Virus record (IMG/VR): IMGVR_UViG_3300025919_000136
Coordinates: 1-64,000 of that record
From: a virus
Length of the DNA stretch: 64,000 nucleotides
Reading direction: 5' to 3' (one strand)
A program made the position numbers and the translations under genes. Below the pieces are notes generated by a model that was not told where the DNA came from, ran no database searches, and saw nothing but the letters and a program-made list of their open reading frames with translations. This document shows positions 12,222-33,764 of the stretch, in pieces. Within the stretch, counting starts at the first letter, position 1; the number at the start of each line of letters is the position of its first letter.

Positions 12222-14341
12222 TCAGCCCTCCGAACCTTCACGCGCCTAATACTAGGCTTAGTTGGTGGGGTGACCTTCTTCAGCCCAGCCGCTTCCCACA
12301 GATTTGCCACATGATCCGTGGCACCATACAAGTAACGCGGAGCGCCCCGCCCAAACGGATTCTCCGTTCGTGTCTTGGTGACGGCTCCCAGCAAGTAGAG
12401 ATCCTCTAGTTGGTCGCGCAGAGTCGTCAATGGGATATCCAACTTCTCGCACAGTGGTTCAATGAAGAAGTCTCCATCGTTACAAAAAGCTGCCACAGCT
12501 TCTAGGTTGAATCCTACGCAAGTATCCAGTGCTACCCGGCTCACTATGGCGTAGTTGTCCTCGTCCAGTTTGGGCACGTGGGATAGGAGCGACAGTCCGT
12601 AGGTCAACTTGGTAAGCTGCTTGCCAATGCGGGTACCCATCTCGTGCTGGGGACGGTACTGCAACTTCTCTTGCCCTCCCGACCACGCTCGGTTCACGTT
12701 AGCGCGAAGGATGCCGACCAGCGAAGCTAAAGCGACGATCTTCGTGATGAGCCACTCAGGCATCGTTGGCAGAGAGTATGGATCGATCTTGACTTCAACG
12801 AACCGCTGGACGATTTCGTGCAGTCCTTCGCGCATGCCAATCTCGTGACCTACGTTGCCAATGGCCGTGCGAATGGCCGCGTCCGCGTTGGGATTGTGTC
12901 CAACTCCCTTGACCAAGTGGAACATCAAGAACCGCTCGCCTAGGGCTGCGGTTCGCTCACCGAACACGGCATGAGTGACGCCGCTGATCATGTTGAATTG
13001 AACTTCATAGTTGCGCACCAATCCGTTCCCATAGTGCTTGGTGACAGAACCGTCGTAGGCACCGCGTAGGGTGCCGTAGATTTCGTCACGTTGGGTGGAG
13101 GGGAGGTTCAGGATCTCGGTGAAGTCCTTCAGTACGAAGGTCTTCTTGTTCAGCTTAGGTAGCAAGGATGGATCACCACCACCCCGCGTGGCAAATCCCG
13201 AAACCAAACTATGTGCCGTTAAGGTACTAGCGAAGTAGCACGACGGGCAACCACTAAGGGGCATCAGGAGTTCCGTTTTCGCGGTTCCTGGAGGGGATAC
13301 GATATGCATCCAGAGCGGATCACCACCAATCTGGTTCGAGAGTACCACCGCGAAGATTAGCTTGAGCCCCGTCACCATATCGTCCGACATCTTCAAGTGC
13401 TGACGGAACACAGCCAGGACTTCCTCGAAGGTTGGACGATCCGTGGAGTCTGGAGGCGGAAGCGATTCTATGTGGGCAGCTTGCTCCGCCTGTTCGTTTA
13501 TGTCGGCTTCGGAAACGTAGGTGGTTACTAGGGACTGCAATTCTTCGTAAGTGCCACCAGCAACCACGAAGTCCCGGACATCAAACTTGTTAGGTAGTGA
13601 CTCAGGCCACTTGAGGTGCAGAAACTGAGTGGCATGTCCGGCCAACTTGCCCGACAATCTATCAGTGCCTTTTACTCCACCCAAGTCATGGTCGTAGCAG
13701 CAGATGACGGTCCGCCCCGACACATACTCCGACCAGCGCTCCTTCCATACTCCCGCTCCAGGGACTCCTATCACGCAGCCAACTTCGTTGGCTGTCTCCA
13801 GAAGATGGCGCAACGCGATGGCATCCCATTCGCCCTCGCAAATATATACTGGTTCGCAGGATTTTTCTAGATCCAGCAGGGCAGATAGGTTCCATATAGA
13901 GAGTTCCAGTCCCCAAATGGATTCTAGCTTGAAATCTTCACCGCACCTGCGGAAGTTAACAATCTTGCCGTGGCCATTGTAGATTGGGATGTACCAATGG
14001 ACCCCATCGTGGACGACTCCGGTTTGTTGTAGGACTTGAGGCGGTAGGTGGCGGCTAGCAGCCAGTTCGGCTAGCCATTCGGGTATTGGAGTGGTAATGG
14101 GTAGGTGGTACATTTTGTACCACTCCGCTAAGAATGTATAGGTATTACCGTTCAACCCACAGGAGCCAGCCTTGCAATCCCACTGGCCCGTTGCGGCGTT
14201 GATGTACAGCTTCTTGCGTCCTCCACAAAAGAGGCAGTCGCCGTAGTATTCGTCTCCCGCATGATTGTCCGCGTGATATTCGAAGCCTAATGCGATGAAC
14301 GGTCTAAGTTTGGGAGGAACTTCGGATGAGCTCCTCGCCAT
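12218..14341 (-). CDS. Primase-helicase fusion: Zn finger + TOPRIM + MCM-like AAA+ ATPase
   Basis: CLFC...CKAGSC; EGEWDA, YDHDLGG (TOPRIM); IVSPPGTAKTELL, ALGERF, GTRIGKQL (MCM-like); start coupled by TAATG overlap. Confidence 0.8.
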   Translation of the reverse strand: MARSSSEVPPKLRPFIALGFEYHADNHAGDEYYGDCLFCGGRKKLYINAATGQWDCKAGSCGLNGNTYTFLAEWYKMYHLPITTPIPEWLAELAASRHLPPQVLQQTGVVHDGVHWYIPIYNGHGKIVNFRRCGEDFKLESIWGLELSIWNLSALLDLEKSCEPVYICEGEWDAIALRHLLETANEVGCVIGVPGAGVWKERWSEYVSGRTVICCYDHDLGGVKGTDRLSGKLAGHATQFLHLKWPESLPNKFDVRDFVVAGGTYEELQSLVTTYVSEADINEQAEQAAHIESLPPPDSTDRPTFEEVLAVFRQHLKMSDDMVTGLKLIFAVVLSNQIGGDPLWMHIVSPPGTAKTELLMPLSGCPSCYFASTLTAHSLVSGFATRGGGDPSLLPKLNKKTFVLKDFTEILNLPSTQRDEIYGTLRGAYDGSVTKHYGNGLVRNYEVQFNMISGVTHAVFGERTAALGERFLMFHLVKGVGHNPNADAAIRTAIGNVGHEIGMREGLHEIVQRFVEVKIDPYSLPTMPEWLITKIVALASLVGILRANVNRAWSGGQEKLQYRPQHEMGTRIGKQLTKLTYGLSLLSHVPKLDEDNYAIVSRVALDTCVGFNLEAVAAFCNDGDFFIEPLCEKLDIPLTTLRDQLEDLYLLGAVTKTRTENPFGRGAPRYLYGATDHVANLWEAAGLKKVTPPTKPSIRRVKVRRAE

Positions 14342-15324
14342 TAGATAGTTGCTCCCTCCAGAAGTAAGCCACACTCGCGCAACTTATCCAGCAGATAGCT
14401 TCCCATGCAGTCGTCCACTAACTTCATGGTGGTGCCGAGTTCGTCGTAGGAGGAAATCCACGAAGGCTTGAGTGGTTCAGGGAAGTACTGCTTCGCCCCT
14501 TCAATCCAGCCTTCGCGGATCCACCGGCCAAGTTGCTCAGCAGTGGGACGGTCCCTCATAGCTAGTTGGGCAAGGTCCGGCAGGGTTAGCCCGGTGTTCT
14601 TCTGGACCTGAACCACACGATCATCCCAGAGGGATTGCATGCGGAAGTCCTTTACGTTCGTCACCGGCAATTCCAAGCCAATGTGCTTCTCGCACCACTT
14701 CTCCACTACGTCTCGAGCCTTGGAAGCATCCCTCGTGGGGTCGTCGCGGACAGATACCCGACTAGTAAAGATGCGCACGTCGTGGCCGTTGTAGAGCCAT
14801 TCGCGGACACGATCTACCATAAGCGGGATCGGTTCGCCAATGTGGTTGATCCCCTTCCAAGCGTCATACTCGGCCAAGGTACCGTCCAAGTCCACTCCAA
14901 TCCAACCATGACGCTTAACCATCTCTCCCAGAAAAACGGACACCCCACTTCCACCGAATGTGGAAGCGTGGGCGGCGTTGGTTGGGTGTGTAGTGTCAGG
15001 AGTACCTGCCATCCACAAATAAATGTCCTTGGCCCCTTCATACATGCGAAGGTAGCTACAAAACTTCGCTAGCTCTAGGCTAGGGCGGACTATATTTTCT
15101 GGCTGGAGGAAGTATTCCTGTCTGAGCGCGAACATCTTCGCGGTGCCTGCGGGCGTCCACATCAACATCTGGTGCATGCGATCCGAACGGACCTTGCGAA
15201 TGGCGAATAGGCAGCCATCATACTGCCCAACGCCACTGGTAATTTGGAAGCGGTGATCGGCTTCCTCGAGTTGGATGCCTTTTGGCTGTGGGGCTGGTTG
15301 CGGGACTTCAGTTGTCTGACACAT
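14341..15324 (-). CDS. Multi-domain protein with HAD phosphatase (PNK 3'-phosphatase-like)
   Basis: WIGVDLDGTLA, IFTSR, K...LWDDR HAD motifs. Confidence 0.7.
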   Translation of the reverse strand: MCQTTEVPQPAPQPKGIQLEEADHRFQITSGVGQYDGCLFAIRKVRSDRMHQMLMWTPAGTAKMFALRQEYFLQPENIVRPSLELAKFCSYLRMYEGAKDIYLWMAGTPDTTHPTNAAHASTFGGSGVSVFLGEMVKRHGWIGVDLDGTLAEYDAWKGINHIGEPIPLMVDRVREWLYNGHDVRIFTSRVSVRDDPTRDASKARDVVEKWCEKHIGLELPVTNVKDFRMQSLWDDRVVQVQKNTGLTLPDLAQLAMRDRPTAEQLGRWIREGWIEGAKQYFPEPLKPSWISSYDELGTTMKLVDDCMGSYLLDKLRECGLLLEGATI

Positions 15325-15339
15325 AAATATAGACTCCTT

Positions 15340-15576
15340 CTACGGCTTTGAACTGCTTTTCTGCTTCATCCATCTACGCTTCTGTCCGGTGCTCCGCTCG
15401 TTGCGACGGGCACGGAATTCTACATTTCCATCTACTATCCGGAACTCAAACTCGTGGACCAGCCCACAGTCGCAACACGAAATCTTGTGAACTGGAGCGT
15501 CGGGTCTAATCCAATAGGTCCAGTTCCCGTCGCCTTTCTCCCCGTCAACGTGCTGTATGTATGGCTTAGACATCAA
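15340..15576 (-). CDS. Small Cys/His phage protein
   Basis: CCDCGLVH; overlaps polymerase stop. Confidence 0.6.
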   Translation of the reverse strand: MMSKPYIQHVDGEKGDGNWTYWIRPDAPVHKISCCDCGLVHEFEFRIVDGNVEFRARRNERSTGQKRRWMKQKSSSKP

Positions 15577-17719
15577 TCGCTACCTTCTCATCCCAGGACG
15601 ACACACACCGTTTGAACTCAACCGGCATGGGCACATCAATACGGCCTTCGTTGTCGGACATGATGTCAATCATGCCGCGAACCAGCCACTTGTATGCGTC
15701 CCGTTGGTGTACCTCGAAGATGATTTCGTCATGCACGGGCATGACAACGTAGGCCCTAGCCCCAACCTCCTTGAAGTACTTCTCGCAGCGGATCATGGAA
15801 TCCTTCACCATGCACGCTGCAGTGGATTGGATCATGTAGTTGACGGCCTTGTAGGGCTTGTCTTCCTCGATGTGAACCTTGCGGCCATACGGGTTCACGA
15901 TATACCCATCCCGCGACGCTTGCTTGATGAGCATATCCATATACTGCCGCATCTCTGGGAGCGCTCCGCTCAGTTCGCGCAGGAACTGGGTGGCTTCCTG
16001 GAGCGAACAGTAGAGCAGTTCCGTAATGGTGCTAGGGCCACCACCATAGATCATGGCAAACATGATAACTTTGGCCCGCCCACGGCTGTTACTCTTGCCG
16101 ACGGACTTCTCTGCCTTCACGATATCATATCCGTGTCGTGCCAGAAAATGGTCCGCCAACTCCTGGGAGCGTTGGGAGTAGAAGCCATAGGTCATAGCTG
16201 CTTTGGAGTTCCACTCATACTCCTGCCAGAGAGCGGCCACTTCTGGGGATGATGGTTCGTTGCGGCCCAAGTCCAGCGCGTATGAAGCGGCCTTCAATGC
16301 AGAGGGATTGTTGCGTCCACCCCATGCCTTATTCGCGCAAGCGGAGTTGGGGTCCCTACCAGCGGATATCTCTTGCAGTAGGAAGGGGATTTGGCCTATT
16401 GCGGCAAATAAGCGAAGTTCTTGTTGCGAATAGTCTCCGGTGTACCAGATGTGATTTGCACGAGGACCAAATGGAATGCGGGGGCGATAAGACCCTATAT
16501 TTGCATGGGCGGTGCGAGGGTTACCAACCTGCATCATGTTAGGGCTATTTGCGCTTAATCTAAATGTCGTGGTTCCGCACTGGTTCACCGAAGGGTGGAC
16601 ACACATACCTCCTGGTGCCAACGGATCCGGCAGCATGAGTTCGAGGTACTTATCGAAGAACAGTTTAATGGCTTGCTCCGCAGCCCGGTAGCCTACAAGC
16701 TCCAACACAAACGGCTCCGTCATCAGTTCGCGGAGCGCATTCTTGTCGGTGGAGTATTCGCCGCTATCCGACGTCCGCGTGGTCGTCAGGCCAAGTCCGC
16801 CTTGTTCGGGCGCATTGTATAACAAGCGGCGAAGTTGGAGCGGGGAGTTGGGGTTGAATTCCAACGAAGTGGCGTCCGCTCCAGCAACGTATGCATCGGG
16901 ATTGTGTGGCCGTAGACCTTTCTCCGCAATCATGCCGAGCATAGACTGGTGGTGCTTGTTCAGCGCAGTAAGTGCCTTATCGTGCTCTTCCTTGACCTTA
17001 GTGGGGTCCAGACGCATACCTCGACGTTCCAACTTCACCATGATCGGCCACAGTTCTCGCTCTGCTTCGTACCCGGCACTAAGGACTTCGTCGTTGTCGA
17101 ACTTCTCCTGGTAGTACAGATGCAGCCCCATGGTGCGGAAGGTATCCATGCGACAGTACTTCTCGCAGCCTTCGGAATCCAGATCGAAACACTTAGGGAG
17201 CCAATAGTCTTGCTCCGCCACTTCGCCGAGTTTGATGAGTGGGCGGTTAGCTTTGGCCGCTACTCGGTTCAACGACTGGCAATGCCGTCGCCACTTCTTG
17301 ACTTCCTCGCGGAGCGTGGATTCGTCATCAATGGGGATGCCGAGATACTTACGGGCAAGTGCCTTCAAGCCGTAGGTATACTCCAGGTTATATGCCACGC
17401 GGGCCTCGATGTGGGTATCGTGGATTGGCCCGGCCATGGGGATACCCAGCGTCTCCAGCATGAAGCAGTCGAACTTGGCGTTATGGAAGATTTTGGGTAG
17501 GTCCTCGCGCGAACAGAGTTCGCGCAGCCACTCAATATCCTCCTCCACCACTTCCGGTTCCCTAGTATATGGATCCACGCCCCACTCGACGTAGGCCGTG
17601 TTGCCATCCTGATCACACAGTCCCACAGCGAACGGTTTGTCGCCATGCCAATGCATAATTCCGGTTGTCTCACAGTCTATAGCGACGGCCTCGGTTGGGT
17701 TGAACTTACCTATGTCCAT
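15566..17719 (-). CDS. Family A DNA polymerase with 3'-5' exonuclease
   Basis: DCETTG, HNAKFD, YCRMD (Exo I-III); DYSQQELR, RGRAKVIMFAMIYG, VHDE (motifs A-C). Confidence 0.95.
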   Translation of the reverse strand: MDIGKFNPTEAVAIDCETTGIMHWHGDKPFAVGLCDQDGNTAYVEWGVDPYTREPEVVEEDIEWLRELCSREDLPKIFHNAKFDCFMLETLGIPMAGPIHDTHIEARVAYNLEYTYGLKALARKYLGIPIDDESTLREEVKKWRRHCQSLNRVAAKANRPLIKLGEVAEQDYWLPKCFDLDSEGCEKYCRMDTFRTMGLHLYYQEKFDNDEVLSAGYEAERELWPIMVKLERRGMRLDPTKVKEEHDKALTALNKHHQSMLGMIAEKGLRPHNPDAYVAGADATSLEFNPNSPLQLRRLLYNAPEQGGLGLTTTRTSDSGEYSTDKNALRELMTEPFVLELVGYRAAEQAIKLFFDKYLELMLPDPLAPGGMCVHPSVNQCGTTTFRLSANSPNMMQVGNPRTAHANIGSYRPRIPFGPRANHIWYTGDYSQQELRLFAAIGQIPFLLQEISAGRDPNSACANKAWGGRNNPSALKAASYALDLGRNEPSSPEVAALWQEYEWNSKAAMTYGFYSQRSQELADHFLARHGYDIVKAEKSVGKSNSRGRAKVIMFAMIYGGGPSTITELLYCSLQEATQFLRELSGALPEMRQYMDMLIKQASRDGYIVNPYGRKVHIEEDKPYKAVNYMIQSTAACMVKDSMIRCEKYFKEVGARAYVVMPVHDEIIFEVHQRDAYKWLVRGMIDIMSDNEGRIDVPMPVEFKRCVSSWDEKVAIDV

Positions 17720-17793: not shown

Positions 17794-18111
17794 CTATAGT
17801 TCCCAGAACTTGTCGTACAATGCTAGTGTGCTCGCCCGTTCGTCGAGCGACATAGCCCGAAGTAGGTTAATACAGCGCTGGCACACATCGGCAAGGTGAG
17901 TGGATTCGCTTGGATCGGTTCGCGCTAGGTTTACTTGCTGCTGGCAGAAGTCTAGGTGCTCGTCTTCAAGGTTCCAGTCATCGATTACGATATGCAGGTG
18001 GCCACCAGTACTGTGCAGCTTGTATACCTCAGCGATCGCGGTGGCCGCCTGGTATACTAACGTAGATTGTATGGTTGGCGATCCATACTCCTGCCAGCAA
18101 CCATAGCACAT
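17794..18111 (-). CDS. Hypothetical protein (GGHLHIVIDDWN motif)
   Basis: ATG coupled to the SDR stop (TAATG). Confidence 0.6.
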   Translation of the reverse strand: MCYGCWQEYGSPTIQSTLVYQAATAIAEVYKLHSTGGHLHIVIDDWNLEDEHLDFCQQQVNLARTDPSESTHLADVCQRCINLLRAMSLDERASTLALYDKFWEL

Positions 18112-18902
18112 TAGACGCCCATCCCTCCCGGCATGGTCAGTACAGTGCCGGAGCATTGTTCGGGCAGACTGTTCACGGCGAAGTCATACAGCTTCCAGAC
18201 TTCGTCGAAAGTACATCCGCGCCCGAATGGGCTCTGGGAGAAGTACTTGGTGGCTTGCTCTTCGGACATACCTCGCGTCCGCTGAAGTTCGCGGATGGCT
18301 TGCGCCTTCATCTCCGTATCGTCAATGCCACCAGGGGCGATGGAACAGATGACGATAGGCAGCCGCCCCGCGAACTCCTTCGCGAAGACCTTCGTCAAGG
18401 CATCCAAACCAGCCTTCGAAGCACAGTACCCAGGGCTAGCCCGGAGGCTAATCTTGGTGCCCATGGACGAAGTATTCACGATGCGGCGCACTCCACTAAC
18501 AACGGCTTCATTACGGACTTGGCCGGTGCGTGTTTGCTCCGTTGAAACTTCGTTTTTAACCCGACGAGCGAATTCCCGGCAGAAAAGGAACGGAGCGACC
18601 AGGTTCACATTTAAAACGGCGCTGAAATCCCCCAAGGAGTGGTTCTCGAGGAAGTCGATCTTGGTCATCCCAGCGTTGTTGATGAGGCCGTCGATGGGGC
18701 CACCCATAGCGGCTTCGGCTTGGTCGAAGACGTGGTGGACTTCCTGCTCCATTGAGTACGGTTCGGGGTAGGTGGCGTTGAAGTCGCTCTCGAACTCCGG
18801 TCCGCCCAAACCCACTCCAAATACTGCATGCCCTTGCTCCAGCAGCCGTTCCCGGATATAGGCTCCAATGCTGCGCGAGCAGCCCGTCATTAAGATTCGC
18901 AT
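18111..18902 (-). CDS. Short-chain dehydrogenase/reductase (SDR)
   Basis: TGCSRSIG, NNAG, NTSS, YCASK, IAPGGIDD. Confidence 0.9.
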   Translation of the reverse strand: MRILMTGCSRSIGAYIRERLLEQGHAVFGVGLGGPEFESDFNATYPEPYSMEQEVHHVFDQAEAAMGGPIDGLINNAGMTKIDFLENHSLGDFSAVLNVNLVAPFLFCREFARRVKNEVSTEQTRTGQVRNEAVVSGVRRIVNTSSMGTKISLRASPGYCASKAGLDALTKVFAKEFAGRLPIVICSIAPGGIDDTEMKAQAIRELQRTRGMSEEQATKYFSQSPFGRGCTFDEVWKLYDFAVNSLPEQCSGTVLTMPGGMGV

Positions 18903-19270
18903 TCGTTCCCCTTGGTATTGTTTGTTGGGTTTCTCTGGTCTACACGCTTCGACAAGCGGGAGAAGTTCTCCATGTCATCGTAGGTATCTTCGTTATAGTT
19001 GTACGGTCGGGCCGCACGGATGGCCTTGACCATGACCATGACCAGTCCCGCTACGTGCGGTGGAATGGCGTGCGGCAACTTGATGTTGTAGTGTGCCTCG
19101 ATGAGCCCGGTGAGCGCGATGCCCGTAGCGCGGAAGGAGTCGTTGGGGTCGCCGTAGACCTTGGACCGTTCAGCGGTGATGGCATCCAGCTTGCTGTTGC
19201 CATTTAAATGGGGCTGAGCGCCATTTACAGGCGACTTGGACGGCTTGGCGAAGGAAGCGCCGTGGCTCAT
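18890..19270 (-). CDS. DUF6378-like protein
   Basis: ERSKVYGDP.DSF...MVMVKAIR...EDTYDD pattern. Confidence 0.6.
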   Translation of the reverse strand: MSHGASFAKPSKSPVNGAQPHLNGNSKLDAITAERSKVYGDPNDSFRATGIALTGLIEAHYNIKLPHAIPPHVAGLVMVMVKAIRAARPYNYNEDTYDDMENFSRLSKRVDQRNPTNNTKGNECES

Positions 19271-20481
19271 GATTGATCTCCTGGAAGGCCATTCATGGCG
19301 TCGAATCCCCATACCTCAGAGAACTTGGCCGCGTTGCGGTCGAGCATCTCGGCTTCGACGGGTCGGGTGGGGGTCCAGTTGCGGATGTCCTTAGCCTTGA
19401 GCGAGTCGGGTTCGTCCTCGAAAATCTCCTCCATCGGTGGCTTCCACGCTATGTCAACTCCAGATTCGGCAGCCTCTATCGCAGCCTGAGTCTCGTATCG
19501 CACCCACAAGGGGCAAGGTGGCATACCATCAGTACCTTGAATCCGCTCCACGTTCGTCCCAGCGACGGGGCAGCCCACGTACTTCCCCTTCTTGATGCAC
19601 TTGGGCAGGCCTACCACTGCGAACAGCGGGTCGACTTCCACCAAGCATTTGCGCATGCCCATGATGACAGGTTCCCAAAGGCCAGCCTGAGACACCCACG
19701 ACGAGCGCTTCCCCAGAATATGTATCATCGCGGCTAGGTTGACGGACCACGTGATATCTCCGGTGGCACCGACGGGGACGAGTTGGCGGCAGTCTTCGAT
19801 GTGGACGCCAGCTTTCTGGAGCGCACGGTAGGCTTCTTGAAGCGAAGCCATAGTGTTGCGGTAGTACTCCTCTGCGTCTATCGTAAGCGGTTCGCAGCCA
19901 GGGTGGTGCGCGATTTGTACTTGCTTTCCTTTCAGCGACTCCGGTACAATGTACCGACCTTCGTCGTAGAAGGTGTCGAACGGCACTACGCGGCTGGTTT
20001 GCGCCCACCACGAGGAATCGTGGAAGTTGGGAACCTGGTCCATGTGCTGCAAGTCGCCGTCCGCTAGCAGACCTTGGATAGGTTCGGGGATGATGTCGAT
20101 GCCGACGCGAGGGTCCAACTTGGTCCCCAGGCGGTGCCTGACTAGCTGTTCGCGAAGGGATATGGGAATGCCCTGCAAGTGGAAGACGAAGTTGAGGTTC
20201 TCCACGACCGGGATGCTCTCGGCAAGGATCATCTCAACTTCGGCGCGGATAGAGGCGGCGCAGTCCTGAGATTGACCACGCTTGAAACCCAACATTTCGA
20301 TAGCTTCGTAGTGCTCAGGCTCGAAGATGTCGGAGTCGTATTGGGCGGAAGCGTTCGGATACTTCAATAGCTGTTCTATCTGGCGTGGGCTCGGCAGTGG
20401 CTTGTTGCTGCGGCTTTGGCGCCAAATATAGAAAAGTGTGCCGACGGGGTGGGATGGGGCGGAGATGAGACTGACTTTCAT
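19267..20481 (-). CDS. thyX: Divergent flavin-dependent thymidylate synthase (ThyX-fold) protein
   Basis: FVFHLQGIPISLREQLVRHR, GVHIEDCRQLVP, VNLAAMIHILGKR; insertion after RHR and a Cys-rich tail. Confidence 0.75.
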   Translation of the reverse strand: MKVSLISAPSHPVGTLFYIWRQSRSNKPLPSPRQIEQLLKYPNASAQYDSDIFEPEHYEAIEMLGFKRGQSQDCAASIRAEVEMILAESIPVVENLNFVFHLQGIPISLREQLVRHRLGTKLDPRVGIDIIPEPIQGLLADGDLQHMDQVPNFHDSSWWAQTSRVVPFDTFYDEGRYIVPESLKGKQVQIAHHPGCEPLTIDAEEYYRNTMASLQEAYRALQKAGVHIEDCRQLVPVGATGDITWSVNLAAMIHILGKRSSWVSQAGLWEPVIMGMRKCLVEVDPLFAVVGLPKCIKKGKYVGCPVAGTNVERIQGTDGMPPCPLWVRYETQAAIEAAESGVDIAWKPPMEEIFEDEPDSLKAKDIRNWTPTRPVEAEMLDRNAAKFSEVWGFDAMNGLPGDQS

Positions 20482-20514
20482 GATTCTCGGTTCCTTTTTA
20501 ACGGCTTGGATTTG

Positions 20515-20541
20515 GGGCGGTTTTCTGGGCAGAGTCTCCGC
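20515..20541 (-). repeat. 28-bp element copy (intergenic)
   Basis: gggcggttttctgggcagagtctccgc. Confidence 0.75.
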
Positions 20542-21164
20542 TACAGACTAATGGAATGCCCTGCCCGCTTCATGATTTCCTTAACGAGATCTATCGTCTG
20601 GTCAACTAATGGACGGATGAAGTCGTATCGAGGGTTCATGAATATGGCGGTGTAGTCGCGCATAGTTTGGTAGTTCTCTACCACAGTGGAGTTAGCGTTC
20701 GTGACCTCCGCGTAGAGGTAGCTTACTACGGATAGGTAGTCGGCGAAGGCCACGATGGCCCCTTCATTAGTGGAGTCCTTCGCGTTGGCCCACATTACCG
20801 CCATGCGCGTGGCGTAGGTTGGTTCGTCGAACAGACTGAGAACGAGAGCCTCGATCTCTTGCTCGGCGGCTGCATCCAGCATGTCTTTGAGTTGCGGATT
20901 GGAGTATTTGAACGGGCGTTGAAAATCGCCTGTGCGGGCTTCGTCCATGTCATGGATTAACGCACGGCGGAGCACTTGGAGTTCATTGATGTCGCGGCGC
21001 TCCGTCTCCTTGCGAATCCAGTCGCAAATGAACATAGAGTAGATGGCGACGTACGCCGTATGCTCCGCTACTCCCTCTCGGTGCAATACCAAGCTGGTCG
21101 AATGTCTGGTAACGTATCTTAGCCTGTTAACATCTCCGGTTAACATAACTCTAATGTTTAGCAC
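20541..21164 (-). CDS. HD-domain deoxynucleotidase (YfbR/DatZ-like)
   Basis: VTRH, EGVAEH, ALIHDMDEARTGD, FADYL. Confidence 0.85.
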   Translation of the reverse strand: MLNIRVMLTGDVNRLRYVTRHSTSLVLHREGVAEHTAYVAIYSMFICDWIRKETERRDINELQVLRRALIHDMDEARTGDFQRPFKYSNPQLKDMLDAAAEQEIEALVLSLFDEPTYATRMAVMWANAKDSTNEGAIVAFADYLSVVSYLYAEVTNANSTVVENYQTMRDYTAIFMNPRYDFIRPLVDQTIDLVKEIMKRAGHSISL

Positions 21165-21684
21165 TGTTTTCCTCTCTTTTTCTGGCCCATCTTAGCTTGG
21201 CTGCCTCGCTAATCTTCTTTTTCGCTTCTTCTGAAACGGGCCTGCTCGTCATACTCATAGATGTGAGTAGTCTGGTATATTCAGATGCTGGTGGCCTTGC
21301 CCTTCGCTTCTCTCCAATCTTCTTTTTGGTCTCCTCAGAATGGTTGAATCCTGGAGGACGTCCCCCTAGTTTGTTTCCGTTGCGCAAAGCATCCAGTTGA
21401 TTCTCACGTCTACTACCCCAGTATAGGTTCTCCAACCTATCATCGTCTGGGATATCATTTTTATGGCATGCGCAGTATCCTGGAGGTCTAGGCCCAACAA
21501 ACGTTTCCAAAACGCCAGCAGCGACTCGTATAGCGGTGCGGGACGAGAATCCAAACCCTCTATAGTTGCCGCTAGGGTAGATGTGGACAGGCTCCTTAGT
21601 ATCCCAAGATCTGACATTCCCTTGATCGGAGATCTCAAAGTATGGGATTTCTGGATACTCTTCCCACCTTTCCTCGTCTGCCAT
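21151..21684 (-). CDS. HNH homing endonuclease (NUMOD4-HNH-NUMOD3)
   Basis: FEISDQGNVRS, FVGPRP, CHKNDIPDDDRLENLYW, HSEETKKKIG. Confidence 0.85.
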   Translation of the reverse strand: MADEERWEEYPEIPYFEISDQGNVRSWDTKEPVHIYPSGNYRGFGFSSRTAIRVAAGVLETFVGPRPPGYCACHKNDIPDDDRLENLYWGSRRENQLDALRNGNKLGGRPPGFNHSEETKKKIGEKRRARPPASEYTRLLTSMSMTSRPVSEEAKKKISEAAKLRWARKREENSAKH

Positions 21685-21686
21685 AT

Positions 21687-22394
21687 CTACGCCCCCACTT
21701 CGGCCCCACGCGGAGCACTTTCTCCAGAAGATGGGCCAACTTCCTGCTGGGCAGCCCAGGCCTCGCAAGCTGACCAATTGAAGTATTGAGCCTTCACTGG
21801 CAGATTGGCGAGCGCACCGCTAATGCCGTATACGCTGGTGAGGCGGCTACGCTCGTAGATAGAGTTGGGGATGTAGCCGCTGAGCGAAGCATCCAGGAAC
21901 TTCTCCAACGCGAAGTACCCAGACAGGAGTCCGTCTGTCCCGTGCGTCAACATAACGTTGAGGTGCTCGGCCTTCTTTGTGGGGTGGAAGCCGACGACCA
22001 GCTTACCCAAGCCACGCGCCAAGCCCATCTCCCAGGTGGCGCCGAGGTCAGGAAGTTCTAGCTCTCGTACGGGGATCGTGATATCTACACGGAGTCCGGT
22101 AGTGGCGGATTCCTTCGGTTCCAACTTGCAAGCGCAAATGCGCTCGTTGGGCGGCAAGGCGTAGGCCAACACTGCCAGGAGCAGATCGCATTCCTGGATG
22201 GAGTCTTCGTTCCAGTTGAAAAGTGGAAGCCAAGCGGCGGGATTGGATTTCTGATCGGGAGCAGGGAGGAACGGTTCGCTACCGAGTCGTGGAGAGAGGA
22301 ATTTGTGGCCGGAAGCGGTGATTATGTCTTCGATCGTGGTGATGATGCCACGTTGGGGCTCGTTGAAGAGCGGTGCGGCTATGTAGATTTTCAT
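21687..22394 (-). CDS. Nucleoside 2-deoxyribosyltransferase / dNMP N-glycosidase family
   Basis: IYIAAPLF, DLGATWEMGLARGLGK, NVML. Confidence 0.85.
   Translation of the reverse strand: MKIYIAAPLFNEPQRGIITTIEDIITASGHKFLSPRLGSEPFLPAPDQKSNPAAWLPLFNWNEDSIQECDLLLAVLAYALPPNERICACKLEPKESATTGLRVDITIPVRELELPDLGATWEMGLARGLGKLVVGFHPTKKAEHLNVMLTHGTDGLLSGYFALEKFLDASLSGYIPNSIYERSRLTSVYGISGALANLPVKAQYFNWSACEAWAAQQEVGPSSGESAPRGAEVGA
21709..21737 (+). repeat. 28-bp element copy (in NDT 3' end)
   Basis: cgcggagcactttctccagaagatgggcc, read as GPSSGESAPR. Confidence 0.9.
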
Positions 22395-22415: not shown

Positions 22416-22448
22416 CCAGTAGGAAGCGCCTACGGCGCTTCCTACTGG
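22416..22448. terminator. Perfect 15-bp hairpin
   Basis: ccagtaggaagcgcc tac ggcgcttcctactgg; no U-tract on the coding strand. Confidence 0.6.
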
Positions 22449-22475: not shown

Positions 22476-23237
22476 CTACGCCGCAGCTGGTACTTCCAGA
22501 CCTTCCGGTTCAACCTCGAGGTCGGAGTAAGCCACTTCATGCTTCACGAACTTACCGTTCGCACCCGGTACTTTGACCAGCGCGATCTCGGTGTCGTCGT
22601 CGAGGGAATCAACGACGCCTTCGGTGCGTGCACCGTCCAAGTCGAAGAATGCCTTCATACCCTTGCGGAGCTCCACTTCTTCTGGAGCGGATGGGGTGGC
22701 GGGTGCGGCAGCCGACCCATTCTGGTTCGACGGCTGTGCCGTCGCACCGGAACTGGACTGGGCGGGATCGGGGCGTGGCGTCGGAGCCGGTTCCCCTTCG
22801 TCCTCGGCATTGTAGTTGGGGAGCAGCTTCACGATGCGAAGATTCTGGAAGTCGGAGTTGGGTGGGGTCTTGAGCGTGAGCTTCATCACGAGGTGCCGCT
22901 CCACCAGTTCTTCCAGTACTGTCTCGAGTTGGGTCAGGTCGATTGCAGCGGCGTCCACGCCGAGGGCACTGAGCCGCCATACCAGCGGTTCCAGGCCACG
23001 CTGGCCTTCGAGACCAAGGTACTCGTACTTCGTGGTGCCAGCCTTATCGCCCTCAAGGAAGGTGTAGCCCCAGCGGATCTGGATCTTGCCGGAGTTCTTG
23101 GACTCGTCCAAGTCGGCGCTGGTGAGCTCGGCGATGTAGGCTCCGTCCGGTGGATTTTCGAAGTTGCCCTTCTTGGCCTTCTCGACGGTTTCAGCCCATT
23201 CTTGGTTCGCTGTCTTGAGGAATCTGTTGAGGTTCAT
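22476..23237 (-). CDS. Single-stranded DNA-binding protein (DUF669-like)
   Basis: PPDGAYIAEL...ESKNSGK OB-fold start, acidic tail, follows AAA gene. Confidence 0.65.
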   Translation of the reverse strand: MNLNRFLKTANQEWAETVEKAKKGNFENPPDGAYIAELTSADLDESKNSGKIQIRWGYTFLEGDKAGTTKYEYLGLEGQRGLEPLVWRLSALGVDAAAIDLTQLETVLEELVERHLVMKLTLKTPPNSDFQNLRIVKLLPNYNAEDEGEPAPTPRPDPAQSSSGATAQPSNQNGSAAAPATPSAPEEVELRKGMKAFFDLDGARTEGVVDSLDDDTEIALVKVPGANGKFVKHEVAYSDLEVEPEGLEVPAAA

Positions 23238-30040: not shown

Positions 30041-30688
30041 TTACTGAGAACCTTTCGGTAGTGCAGCTGGCGGCATTGGCCCTGGAGCCATCGCTTCGCG
30101 GAGGTCTTCCACGTATTGCGCCTTGGCTGCTTCAAGGTCCAGTTGGCGGACCACCCACGACGGATGCCGCACGGCACGCAGGCGGAAAGTATGGCCGGAC
30201 AGCTTGGCAATATGCGGAGCATAGTCCAGCGGAACTTTGCCAGTTACGATGATTATCTTCGGTTGGAGCAGGCGCACGAGTTCGGTTAGGCGCGGTGCGC
30301 ATGCCTCGATTTCGTTATGGTCTGGGGCGCGGTTCGCTGGATGACTAGGGCGGAGCGCCCACGGACGGCAAGCCAGCAGATTCGTCAGGGTATACGGGGA
30401 CGTATTCCCTGTAGCCGCAATGCACTCCCGCAACAGCTGCCCTGCCGGGCCTACGAAGGGCCGTCCAAGGACGTTCTCCCCCACTCCAGGCCCCTCGCCG
30501 ATGAACATGAATGGTGGGCGTAGATTGGCGTAGAACGGTGTAGCATTGGTGGCTGGGTCGGGGGGCACCACAATTTCGAACAGTACATGATGCTTCGCGG
30601 AGGCTCCCAACGGGCATCGTTGGCAGGTAGACCACTCCTGGACGAGTGGTTCGAGGATAGGCAGGGAGCAAATGGAGGTGTCTGGCAT
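30041..30688 (-). CDS. Uracil-DNA glycosylase family 4
   Basis: CQRCPL, IGEGPG, PFVGPAG, TNLLACRP, NRAP..E...C, HPS. Confidence 0.9.
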   Translation of the reverse strand: MPDTSICSLPILEPLVQEWSTCQRCPLGASAKHHVLFEIVVPPDPATNATPFYANLRPPFMFIGEGPGVGENVLGRPFVGPAGQLLRECIAATGNTSPYTLTNLLACRPWALRPSHPANRAPDHNEIEACAPRLTELVRLLQPKIIIVTGKVPLDYAPHIAKLSGHTFRLRAVRHPSWVVRQLDLEAAKAQYVEDLREAMAPGPMPPAALPKGSQ

Positions 30689-32444: not shown

Positions 32445-33026
32445 TTAGTACTTCTTGCCACCTTCCTTGGCGCGAACGTGTGGCTTATGATCCTCGCGGA
32501 CGGAGTTGTAGGCCAACTTCTCCGCCATGATCTCCGGCAACTCCGGAGCATATTCGCCCGCTAGGTCGTAGATGCGAATGAGAGTATCCGCAAGTTCGCA
32601 AGCGAACATGGAGCGGTGGGGCAACTTGTCGTCGGGTAGACCCTTGCGGTGGCCTTCCATGGCCTCGGCGAGTTCGCTGACGGCAAGCATGAGCAGTTCG
32701 CCAATGTTGCGCTGAACGTATTCGCCAGTATGTGGGTCGTTCCACCAGCCGCAAGCGACGGCGTTGCCGTGGCATTGGGCGACTAGGATTTGGGTGGCAC
32801 CAGAGATCGCGACTGGATCCAGAGCGAAGGTTCCAGTAGAGGGATACGGCGCGGCTTCGAAGCGGTCGGTTTGGTAGAGCGGTTGCGGGGTGTTCGGATG
32901 ATCTGCTGGTGCGGACGGGTCGTTCAACGGAAGTCGGTGGATTTCTGGTTGGTTGGGCATCTCGGTTCCTTTTAAGTATTGTTCGCCTAAGTACTCTAAA
33001 TATGGCGAAGGTTCAGTATTGCTCAT
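32445..33026 (-). CDS. MazG-like NTP pyrophosphohydrolase
   Basis: SELAEAMEGHRK...ELADTLIRIYD...EKLAYN. Confidence 0.8.
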   Translation of the reverse strand: MSNTEPSPYLEYLGEQYLKGTEMPNQPEIHRLPLNDPSAPADHPNTPQPLYQTDRFEAAPYPSTGTFALDPVAISGATQILVAQCHGNAVACGWWNDPHTGEYVQRNIGELLMLAVSELAEAMEGHRKGLPDDKLPHRSMFACELADTLIRIYDLAGEYAPELPEIMAEKLAYNSVREDHKPHVRAKEGGKKY

Positions 33027-33213
33027 CTATTCGCTCCCGACACTGGTCGGTTACTCGGACCCAACGGTAGCCTGCAATACGACCTTGCAACTTGGCCCAA
33101 CGACCCCGCCTACGTCGGCGGTACCACTGGAACATCGATAGTTCCAAGCCTACGGACCAAGCGGTGGCGTATAGCAGAGCTATAGTAAATAGAATGCTGG
33201 CGATTGTGTTCAT
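33013..33213 (-). CDS. Small membrane protein (paralogue of 26456-26665)
   Basis: WYRRRRRGRWAK...RWVRVTD. Confidence 0.6.
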   Translation of the reverse strand: MNTIASILFTIALLYATAWSVGLELSMFQWYRRRRRGRWAKLQGRIAGYRWVRVTDQCRERIDEQY

Positions 33214-33764
33214 TAATAGTATACTCCTGGCTGTGGTTCTGGAGTGAGTTCGAAGGTGATCGGGATCTCGGTACTATGGCTATATGGTGCTCCGTAAGCC
33301 AGTTTGTATGATGTTTGATCGCTGTCCAGATGATACGGCGGTAGCAGCGTGTATGTAGGTAATTGGGCTTGGAGCGCCATATTGGTCTCTTCGGTCAGGC
33401 CAACAGAATTCTCCCAGCCGTCCAGTTGCAGTATGAAGAGCGCATTGCAACGGGCAAGCATACGTACATCGAAGGTTCGCCAGTAGTTCCAGCCGCGCCG
33501 CTTGCGTTCGGCTTGAACGGAGTCGGGCGGAGTGGTGGTTTCGATTAGCTTCGCCAGAGGATGGTTATGTACGATAGGGCTGTATACTACGTAGCCCTGC
33601 TCCATCAGGTAAGCGGTGGCGTGGAGGGCCGCTTCGAAGCGTTGCTCCATGATGTGGCCGAAGGGGTGGTTGTATGGGCTGGCAAGGTAGATCACGCCAC
33701 GGTTGCCGATGTAGCGGAGGGCCTGAATGGATTGTTCTCGGGAGTACTCCGTAGTAGTATTCAT
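33213..33764 (-). CDS. DUF1937-like protein (NDT-related fold)
   Basis: IYLASPY, VYSPIVHNH, LDGWENSVG..EE. Confidence 0.7.
   Translation of the reverse strand: MNTTTEYSREQSIQALRYIGNRGVIYLASPYNHPFGHIMEQRFEAALHATAYLMEQGYVVYSPIVHNHPLAKLIETTTPPDSVQAERKRRGWNYWRTFDVRMLARCNALFILQLDGWENSVGLTEETNMALQAQLPTYTLLPPYHLDSDQTSYKLAYGAPYSHSTEIPITFELTPEPQPGVYY

Follow-up and report, generated by a model that had tools for sequence, protein, structure and literature searches.

To our knowledge, the routes by which phages replace or decorate thymine in their DNA all either begin with a ThyA-type enzyme or operate on DNA that is already made. Replacement and hypermodification of thymidine by the classical route (SPO1, M6, ViI, SH-Ab 15599) employ a ThyA-type dUMP hydroxymethylase, dTTPase/dUTPase, 5-HMUDK and aGPT-Pplase. 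In these pathways, a C5 one-carbon transferase acts on dUMP and is encoded next to nucleotide-degrading enzymes within the replication genes (PMC8989533, PMC13458397). The PurZ/DatZ/MazZ system of Z-genome phages combines a synthase with an HD phosphohydrolase. Here, we describe a locus in which the candidate synthase is a ThyX-fold flavoprotein, encoded together with a nucleoside 2-deoxyribosyltransferase (NDT) family protein, an HD phosphohydrolase, a DUF6378 protein and a short-chain dehydrogenase/reductase (SDR) ahead of a family A DNA polymerase (PolA). The locus lies in a 64,000-nucleotide stretch of DNA from an uncultured phage (the window; positions 1 to 64,000 of IMG/VR virus record IMGVR_UViG_3300025919_000136, an 88,424-bp sequence with a 'provirus' flag and a CheckV completeness of 71%). 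We propose, with a probability of about 0.4, that these genes form a module, conserved among phages, whose task is to provide the DNA polymerase encoded immediately downstream with pyrimidine deoxynucleotides, and that they do so by a non-canonical pyrimidine pathway.

How does this locus compare with the described systems? It shares the logic of the classical thymidine pathways, but the synthase there has a ThyA-type fold, whereas here the fold is that of ThyX and no DNA-level step is recognized; a classical hypermodification reading was rejected because neither the helical domain of 5-HMUDK (PF18723) nor the ThyA family (PF00303) is present in the 88-kb record. A preliminary description of the locus, made from the sequence alone, had drawn a parallel to PurZ/DatZ/MazZ. 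PurZ (PF00709) is absent from the record (71% complete), so the comparison is an analogy only, and the Z-genome reading was rejected; the HD protein resembles DatZ less than it does Lin2634, OxsA and YfbR, and a weak likeness remains in that the DUF6378 protein may have a MazG-like helical fold. PolB (4p5a, 4p5b), which methylates C5 of UMP/dUMP in polyoxin synthesis, shows that a ThyX fold can serve a role beyond dTMP supply and is structurally close to the window protein, but it is a cellular Streptomyces enzyme from a natural-product cluster, and the kinship is at the level of the fold.

Among phages, a sister ThyX-like protein is found in Pseudomonas phage PB1: gp61 (L073, 8998-9915), annotated as a FAD-dependent thymidylate synthase, is related to the clade with an hhalign probability of 99.1 and is also encoded a few genes before a DNA polymerase gene. 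Gp61 has Cys at the positions of C261, C295 and C304 (clade numbering, as in the window protein) but differs in having RTR in place of RHR, no insertion in the signature and no Cys at 323. Its neighbors differ as well: by BLASTP, PB1 shares ThyX alone with the window, although gp59 matches one small ORF (open reading frame) and gp53 a protein cluster in two of the related loci described below (L057 and L062, respectively). In the Pbunaviruses F8 and 14-1, according to a 2025 preprint, liquid chromatography-mass spectrometry reveals new thymidine derivatives that replace about a quarter of thymidine; the portion of the preprint consulted describes both phages as lacking known modification genes and does not assign the modification to gp61 (PMC12191111). 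The literature searched, supplements excluded, yielded no published role for ThyX in DNA hypermodification and no cysteine or metal ThyX.

ThyX Fold, Signature, and Conserved Residues

The ThyX-fold protein matches PF02511 at 59 bits (gathering cut-off, 24.8), in a match split over two stretches, and fails the NCBIfam thyX equivalog (TIGR02170, 48.4 bits vs a cut-off of 87.9). The fold itself is clear. An AlphaFold model, obtained with 31 relatives, has a pLDDT of 84.8 and a pTM of 0.79, with disorder limited to residues 118-158, and Foldseek matches it to solved ThyX chains with a probability of 1.00 and to nothing else of note. VIA aligns it with Mycobacterium tuberculosis ThyX (3hzg_A; Z 13.5, root-mean-square deviation 3.0, 205 residues aligned, 19% identity), with which Thermotoga maritima ThyX, the atypical Corynebacterium glutamicum ThyX and PolB (4p5b, Z 12.6) tie within one Z unit. 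Identity to solved chains of the ThyX family is 17-22% over approximately 200 of the 404 residues; thus, about half of the protein is ThyX core and half consists of additions.

What sets this protein apart from canonical ThyX, also known as flavin-dependent thymidylate synthase (FDTS), for which T. maritima TM0449 and the M. tuberculosis enzyme serve as references? The canonical signature, RHRx7SxR, is contiguous. Here it is interrupted: 43 residues separate RHR (115-117) from Q161-T162-S163-R164, while in 135 of 181 relatives the spacing between RHR and Q-[ST]-x-R is 24 residues. This insertion and the failed equivalog cut-off bear out the preliminary description, which had called the ThyX divergent. 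The canonical arginines are nonetheless in place, with RHR 115-117 aligned by profile to R78-H79-R80 of the T. maritima protein, R164 to R90, R232 to R147, and R259 to R174. The same alignment pairs E94-N95 with E58-H59, which places His53 at S89, in a register that comes from the profile (hidden Markov model) alignment rather than from a structural one. A His53-type residue stacks on folate/NADPH; across the clade, this position is not conserved (D in 51, G in 27, S in 18 and A in 17).

These residue counts refer to an alignment of 181 family members, the sequences of 270-500 aa among 194 proteins. R164 is universal, and R115, R232 and R259 are each found in 180 sequences, Q112 in 174 and H116 in 173; R117 is Arg in 160 and Lys in 14. 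The position of Ser88 (T162 in the window protein) is Ser in 95 sequences and Thr in 80. Beyond the ThyX core, in the C-terminal extension that accounts for part of the roughly 200 extra residues, none of the 181 sequences lacks C295, C304 or C323, which are specific to the clade. C261, two residues past the catalytic Arg, occurs in 165, and H241 in 163. These clade-specific features are under strong selection.

The clade is large and viral. A word-indexed search found 60 ThyX homologs, all of metagenomic or viral origin and none on a contig longer than 94 kb; with a full profile search, the number of representative clusters came to 252 at E ≤ 1e-30 (4530 at E ≤ 1e-3), and the neighboring clusters in the Atlas are 88-100% viral. 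When one genome from each of 185,579 prokaryote species was scanned with patterns, 67 stretches matched, none of which was confirmed as a relative. Thus far, then, members of the ThyX clade have come exclusively from viral or metagenomic DNA. The window phage has no close relative among cultured phages: the block as a whole gave no blastn match in 50,697 phage records, tblastn of ThyX found two records at 24% identity, and tblastn of PolA reached at best 26.2% among the 25 of 2340 matches listed, with all 2340 records below 60%. The nearest relative is L002/L074, in which the main genes are 76-93% identical at the protein level.

Organization of the Locus

All genes between 15566 and 23237 are on the minus strand and would be transcribed in the order DUF669, NDT, HNH, HD, ThyX, DUF6378, SDR, orf120, PolA (Table 1). 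The arrangement of the block recurs in related viral contigs, which argues that NDT-HD-ThyX-DUF6378-SDR did not come together by chance. The preliminary description had listed these five gene types, in this order and ahead of the polymerase, at 17794-22394; all are present by Pfam, on the minus strand, with PolA downstream. It missed, however, an HNH/NUMOD gene between NDT and HD, and the low end of its interval is occupied by orf120, a 120-aa ORF that has no family match. It had also noted overlapping stops and starts, and these are real: the stop of ThyX and the start of DUF6378 lie within a common ATGA at 19270-19267 (a DUF6378 start at the Met of 19270 matches the Atlas version of the protein), the overlap of DUF6378 with SDR is 13 nt long, and a TAATG at 18113-18109 is common to the SDR stop and an alternative orf120 ATG (18111). 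With stops and starts overlapping all the way from ThyX to orf120, ThyX, DUF6378, SDR and orf120 form one translationally coupled unit.

Two features lie outside the coding sequences. Approximately 20 nt upstream of the NDT start lies a perfect hairpin (15-bp stem, 3-nt loop), for which roles in termination, processing or regulation are conceivable. Copies of a dispersed element, roughly 20-38 nt in length, occur at gene junctions; one lies in the 59-nt gap between HD and ThyX and another follows orf120, so that the coupled unit is bracketed by element copies.

Table 1. Features of the locus and further nucleotide-related genes of the window (positions in the window).
Feature	Position	Strand	Evidence and remarks
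Dispersed-element copy	23306-23345		gene junction
DUF669 protein	22476..23237	-	PF05037 E 2.5e-5; also upstream of NDT in relatives
Perfect hairpin	22416..22448		between DUF669 gene and NDT
NDT (nucleoside 2-deoxyribosyltransferase family), 235 aa	21687..22394	-	PF05014 E 1.8e-10
Dispersed-element copy	21710-21747		gene junction
HNH/NUMOD homing endonuclease	21151..21777	-	PF13392, NUMOD3/4, phrog_1492 E 4.2e-27
HD phosphohydrolase (YfbR/OxsA/DatZ type), 207 aa	20541..21164	-	PF12917 YfbR-like E 1.1e-21; phrog_7076 E 4.9e-19
Dispersed-element copy	20523..20541		HD-ThyX spacer
ThyX-fold flavoprotein, 404 aa	19267..20481	-	PF02511 E 7.2e-16
DUF6378 protein	ORF 18890..19312, likely 18890..19270	-	PF19905 E 6.7e-7, 29.9 bits vs cut-off 27.1
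Classical SDR, 263 aa	18111..18902	-	PF00106 E 2.8e-27
orf120, 120 aa, Cys/His-rich	17794..18156	-	family matches none
Dispersed-element copy	17755-17793		gene junction, after orf120
Family A DNA polymerase (PolA) with 3'-5' exonuclease domain	15566..17719	-	PF00476 E 4.9e-54, PF01612
HAD/PNK-like protein	14341-15324		phrog_415, E 5e-7 only
UDG	30041-30688		PF03167
MazG-like protein	32445-33026		phrog_5658 E 1e-51
NDT-clan-like DUF1937/DUF4406 protein	33213-33764		

Partner Genes

The SDR has the motifs of a classical SDR (TGCSRSIG for TGxxxSxG, LINNAG and the catalytic S146/Y159/K163); G7, G13, G78, S146, Y159 and K163 are invariant in eight sequences, and NNAG is kept in seven of them. It resembles FabG-type ketoreductases and sugar/polyol dehydrogenases but falls far under every equivalog cut-off, including that of FabG itself (3-oxoacyl-ACP reductase; TIGR01830, 89.2 bits vs a cut-off of 297.75). 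The subfamily comprises approximately 35 metagenomic clusters and is set off from generic SDRs by a gap in score between 102 and 66 bits. A co-occurrence of ThyX, SDR, HD and NDT, which the preliminary description had suggested looking for, does exist: viral loci with an SDR at least 36% identical carry HD and ThyX in five of five cases and NDT in four of five, the fifth locus (L075) being cut by the contig end. Sequence comparisons thus indicate that this SDR subfamily is phage-only and dedicated to the ThyX module.

The NDT protein scores 41.4 bits against PF05014 (cut-off, 28.8) and contains an internal insertion. It keeps the catalytic Glu motif D-x-G-x-x-W-E-x-G and the N-x-M motif, with D116, G118, E122, N146 and M148 invariant in 19 relatives, and the nearest solved chain is an N-deoxyribosyltransferase (6evs, E 1.7e-7), not DNPH1/Rcl. 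The residues are those expected of a true deoxyribosyltransferase rather than a hydrolase of deoxynucleoside monophosphates (dNMPs) and do not fit the earlier suggestion of an enzyme that cleaves modified NMPs, as MilB and DNPH1 do. The HD protein passes PF12917 (77.8 bits vs 25.9) but not the NCBIfam equivalog NF003009 (44.9 vs 122); its matches in the PDB are 3mzo (E 6.3e-9), OxsA (5.5e-6), YfbR (3.7e-5) and, in sixth place, DatZ (1.7e-3), which puts it nearer to Lin2634, OxsA and YfbR than to DatZ.

The DUF6378 protein is modeled as a four-helix bundle (pLDDT 78.8), in which G54, K96, R99, D109 and D113 are the invariant residues. Its VIA neighbors are weakly MazG-like: the top row is AF_0060 (Z 6.3), which we take to be MazG-like, and MazG-type titles make up seven of the 21 best rows, of which rows 2-21, with Z 4.1-4.9, including S-2L MazZ (7ody, Z 4.9), are below the range in which the tool is trusted. 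Foldseek gave no match at E ≤ 0.001, and a profile search of the PDB gave none at E ≤ 10. The Atlas contains viral fusions of DUF6378 to an NDT-clan domain, DUF4406 (a cluster of 73 members); a prediction of an NDT-DUF6378 complex, prompted by these fusions, returned no answer (score 0.00).

The HNH gene likely starts at an ATG at 21684, just past the NDT stop; in the nearest relative, only a matching trace of 33 aa is left and NDT abuts HD, and for this reason the HNH gene is best read as a recent mobile insertion. Orf120 has no match in Pfam, PHROGs or NCBIfam and is conserved only in the nearest relative (86% identity). The DUF669 protein, by a label familiar from phage annotation, is presumably a single-stranded DNA-binding protein. 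Elsewhere in the window, the MazG-like, second NDT-clan, uracil-DNA glycosylase (UDG) and HAD/PNK-like genes to which additional pool control had been ascribed are all found, the HAD/PNK-like assignment being based on phrog_415 (E 5e-7) only. The MazG-like protein has no match in a PDB search, and the sole PDB match of the DUF1937 protein is 1t1j, a hypothetical protein.

Two Lineages and a Variable Slot

Which genes travel with this ThyX? In 71 viral loci taken together with the ThyX alignment, tblastn detects PolA in 32, HD in 29, AAA_24 in 24, DUF6378 in 19, NDT in 18, DUF669 in 15, UDG in nine and SDR in seven; these counts are lower bounds, since many loci are cut by contig ends. Clustering of all ORFs in the loci separates two lineages. 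In lineage A, which includes the window, a helicase, UDG, PD-(D/E)XK, AAA_24 and DUF669 are followed by NDT, HD, in some cases DUF6378, a variable slot, ThyX, PolA and a primase-helicase. The order DUF6378-SDR-ThyX is seen in relatives, whereas in the window and its nearest relative the DUF6378-SDR pair follows ThyX.

The slot holds different enzymes in different phages. Among the 24 lineage A loci that span the region from NDT/HD to PolA, it contains an SDR in six, a radical SAM/SPASM protein in eight, a second ThyX paralog in four, and none of these in nine; three of the four paralog loci also have the radical SAM protein, while SDR and radical SAM are never found together. NADAR (PF08719, E 1.9e-25) occurs in three paralog loci and DUF488-N3a in two, and in one further locus (L045), which ends ahead of PolA, a SAM-dependent methyltransferase gene lies directly before ThyX.

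The second ThyX paralog (L025, L054, L068, L015, L017) is more divergent than the main ThyX, with an HRH-type motif and no insertion, and has the Cys pattern of the clade. It precedes the main ThyX in three loci, beside NADAR, radical SAM/SPASM and DUF488-N3a genes, and raises the possibility of heteromeric ThyX enzymes in the sister phages that bear it.

Lineage B combines the same ThyX clade with a different replication apparatus, including DNA polymerase III alpha and CobS/CobT-like genes. Here, the ThyX neighbors are a class III aminotransferase (PF00202, E 9.5e-75; 28 loci), a FAD-Rossmann protein (26), a HAD/PNK-like protein (29) and a thymidylate kinase (Tmk)-like protein (25). In these phages (L010, L014, L026-L067), ThyX is located between the HAD/PNK-like and aminotransferase genes, and FAD-Rossmann, Tmk-like and CobS/CobT-like genes, along with two copies of a 346-aa protein of unknown family, lie nearby, ahead of DNA polymerase III alpha.

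What Does the Module Make?

We favor a pathway in which ThyX still binds FAD and dUMP and transfers a one-carbon unit to C5, but in which its rebuilt cofactor site and substrate loop would let it release a product other than, or besides, dTMP, for example a 5-hydroxymethyl-type or otherwise functionalized dUMP. DUF6378 and SDR might then tailor or handle this nucleotide by NAD(P)(H)-dependent oxidoreduction, while removal or recycling of the canonical deoxynucleotides would fall to the HD phosphohydrolase and the deoxyribosyltransferase, and the product would be incorporated into DNA by the adjacent polymerase. A remodeled, virus-only, cysteine-bearing ThyX, a dedicated SDR coupled to it, and the tailoring-type enzymes that occupy the slot in two unrelated lineages together point beyond plain dTMP. 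The reading as a base-modification operon, first put forward in the preliminary description, thereby gains a conserved, replication-linked unit, a divergent ThyX, a tied SDR and other tailoring-type enzymes in the same slot; what it loses is set out next, together with the reading that gains from it.

That reading, which we consider nearly as likely since all arginines that contact dUMP and FAD are kept, is that ThyX simply makes dTMP from dUMP, that HD (as a 5'-deoxynucleotidase) and NDT rebalance deoxynucleosides and recover them from degraded host DNA, and that DUF6378, SDR and orf120 are accessory genes outside base chemistry. Several observations weigh against our proposal and mostly in favor of this simpler one. 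The canonical arginines (RHR, R164, R232, R259) are found in at least 180 of 181 sequences, except R117, so the simplest interpretation is conversion of dUMP to dTMP, in keeping with a clear ThyX fold (Z 13.5); phage enzymes are often strongly diverged with their function unchanged. ThyA and the 5-HMUDK helical domain are missing from the 88-kb record (71% complete), ThyA is missing from all 31 related lineage A records, eight of which are at least 90% complete, and a PF02511 search finds no ThyX outside this clade. This ThyX is thus the sole thymidylate synthase in the 32 records, and without it the phage would have no dTMP source of its own. Nor does any of the 32 records contain a thymidylate kinase above the cut-off, and no phage dNMP kinase was found in them; host kinases must therefore accept the product. 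The NDT and HD enzymes, the former with the residues of a true deoxyribosyltransferase, fit plain salvage equally well. The SDR is present in only a quarter (6/24) of the spanning relatives, and the nine of 24 loci that have neither SDR nor radical SAM nor paralog include two that are reduced to NDT-HD-ThyX-PolA. Finally, the window ThyX and its nearest counterpart lack two clade-typical residues, carrying G241 and S261. Yet ordinary supply leaves unexplained why ThyX, DUF6378, SDR and orf120 are coupled, why an SDR subfamily is dedicated to the module, why tailoring-type genes (radical SAM, methyltransferase, NADAR, DUF488, paralog, aminotransferase, FAD-Rossmann) accompany the clade in two lineages, and why the cysteines are invariant and the cofactor site rebuilt.

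Could the SDR serve ThyX in another way? The product might be dTMP, with the SDR regenerating reduced pterin/folate or free flavin, much as dihydrofolate reductase (DHFR) stands beside ThyA in T4. In its favor, SDR-fold enzymes include pteridine/dihydrofolate reductases (FolM, PTR1) and flavin reductases, the ThyX and SDR genes are coupled, and the residue aligned with His53 is lost across the clade. We nevertheless regard this as improbable. ThyX chemistry yields tetrahydrofolate, which makes DHFR unneeded; 18 of the 24 spanning relatives have no SDR; and the SDR profile is FabG-like. A FolM/PTR1 assignment is not supported, given that the motif of those enzymes is TGxxxRxG and the SDR has Ser at the Arg position (TGxxxSxG), and that none of them is found among the 60 best solved chains or the 25 best NCBIfam models. 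More improbable still is that the product stays out of DNA and is a free modified nucleoside or base directed at the host, an antimetabolite or counter-defense agent made in the manner of nucleoside natural products: the NMP would be modified by a synthase homolog, its base released or transferred by a phosphatase and an NDT-fold enzyme, and the base then tailored by a reductase. In bacimethrin and mildiomycin synthesis, a thymidylate synthase is paired with an NDT-fold glycosidase, the HD protein has OxsA-type enzymes of oxetanocin synthesis among its nearest matches, PolB of polyoxin synthesis ties structurally with ThyX (4p5b, Z 12.6), and the absence of a phage kinase would suit a product that is never made into a dNTP. 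However, the HD protein resembles the YfbR family in general, neither an export nor a resistance gene is seen, and, in both lineages, the module is always found within replication genes, directly before the polymerase gene.

Implications

If the proposal of a non-canonical pyrimidine pathway is extended to the whole family, the cysteine-bearing ThyX clade would consist of virus-only flavin enzymes that functionalize C5 of dUMP without completing the methyl reduction, seeding diverse, pre-replicative thymidine substitutes; tailoring would be specific to each lineage, with the SDR in the window phage, radical SAM, methyltransferase, NADAR or the second paralog in its sister phages, and, in the phages that encode DNA polymerase III alpha, an aminotransferase together with a flavoprotein and a kinase. 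The PB1 sister protein would then be the entry point of Pbunavirus hypermodification. We hold this broader view to be doubtful.

Even if the product is plain dTMP, the enzyme remains unusual among ThyX proteins for its rebuilt cofactor site, and would bear on how folate and NADPH are bound by enzymes that are antibiotic targets; with 252 representative clusters at E ≤ 1e-30, the clade is not the curiosity of a single contig. If the module does make a non-canonical pyrimidine, ThyX chemistry in DNA metabolism would no longer be confined to dTMP as its product, the modified thymidine of PB1-like phages that have no known modification genes could be explained, and new enzymes useful for modified-nucleotide synthesis would become available. 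Entry through ThyX would then represent a second, independent route to thymine replacement or decoration in phages.

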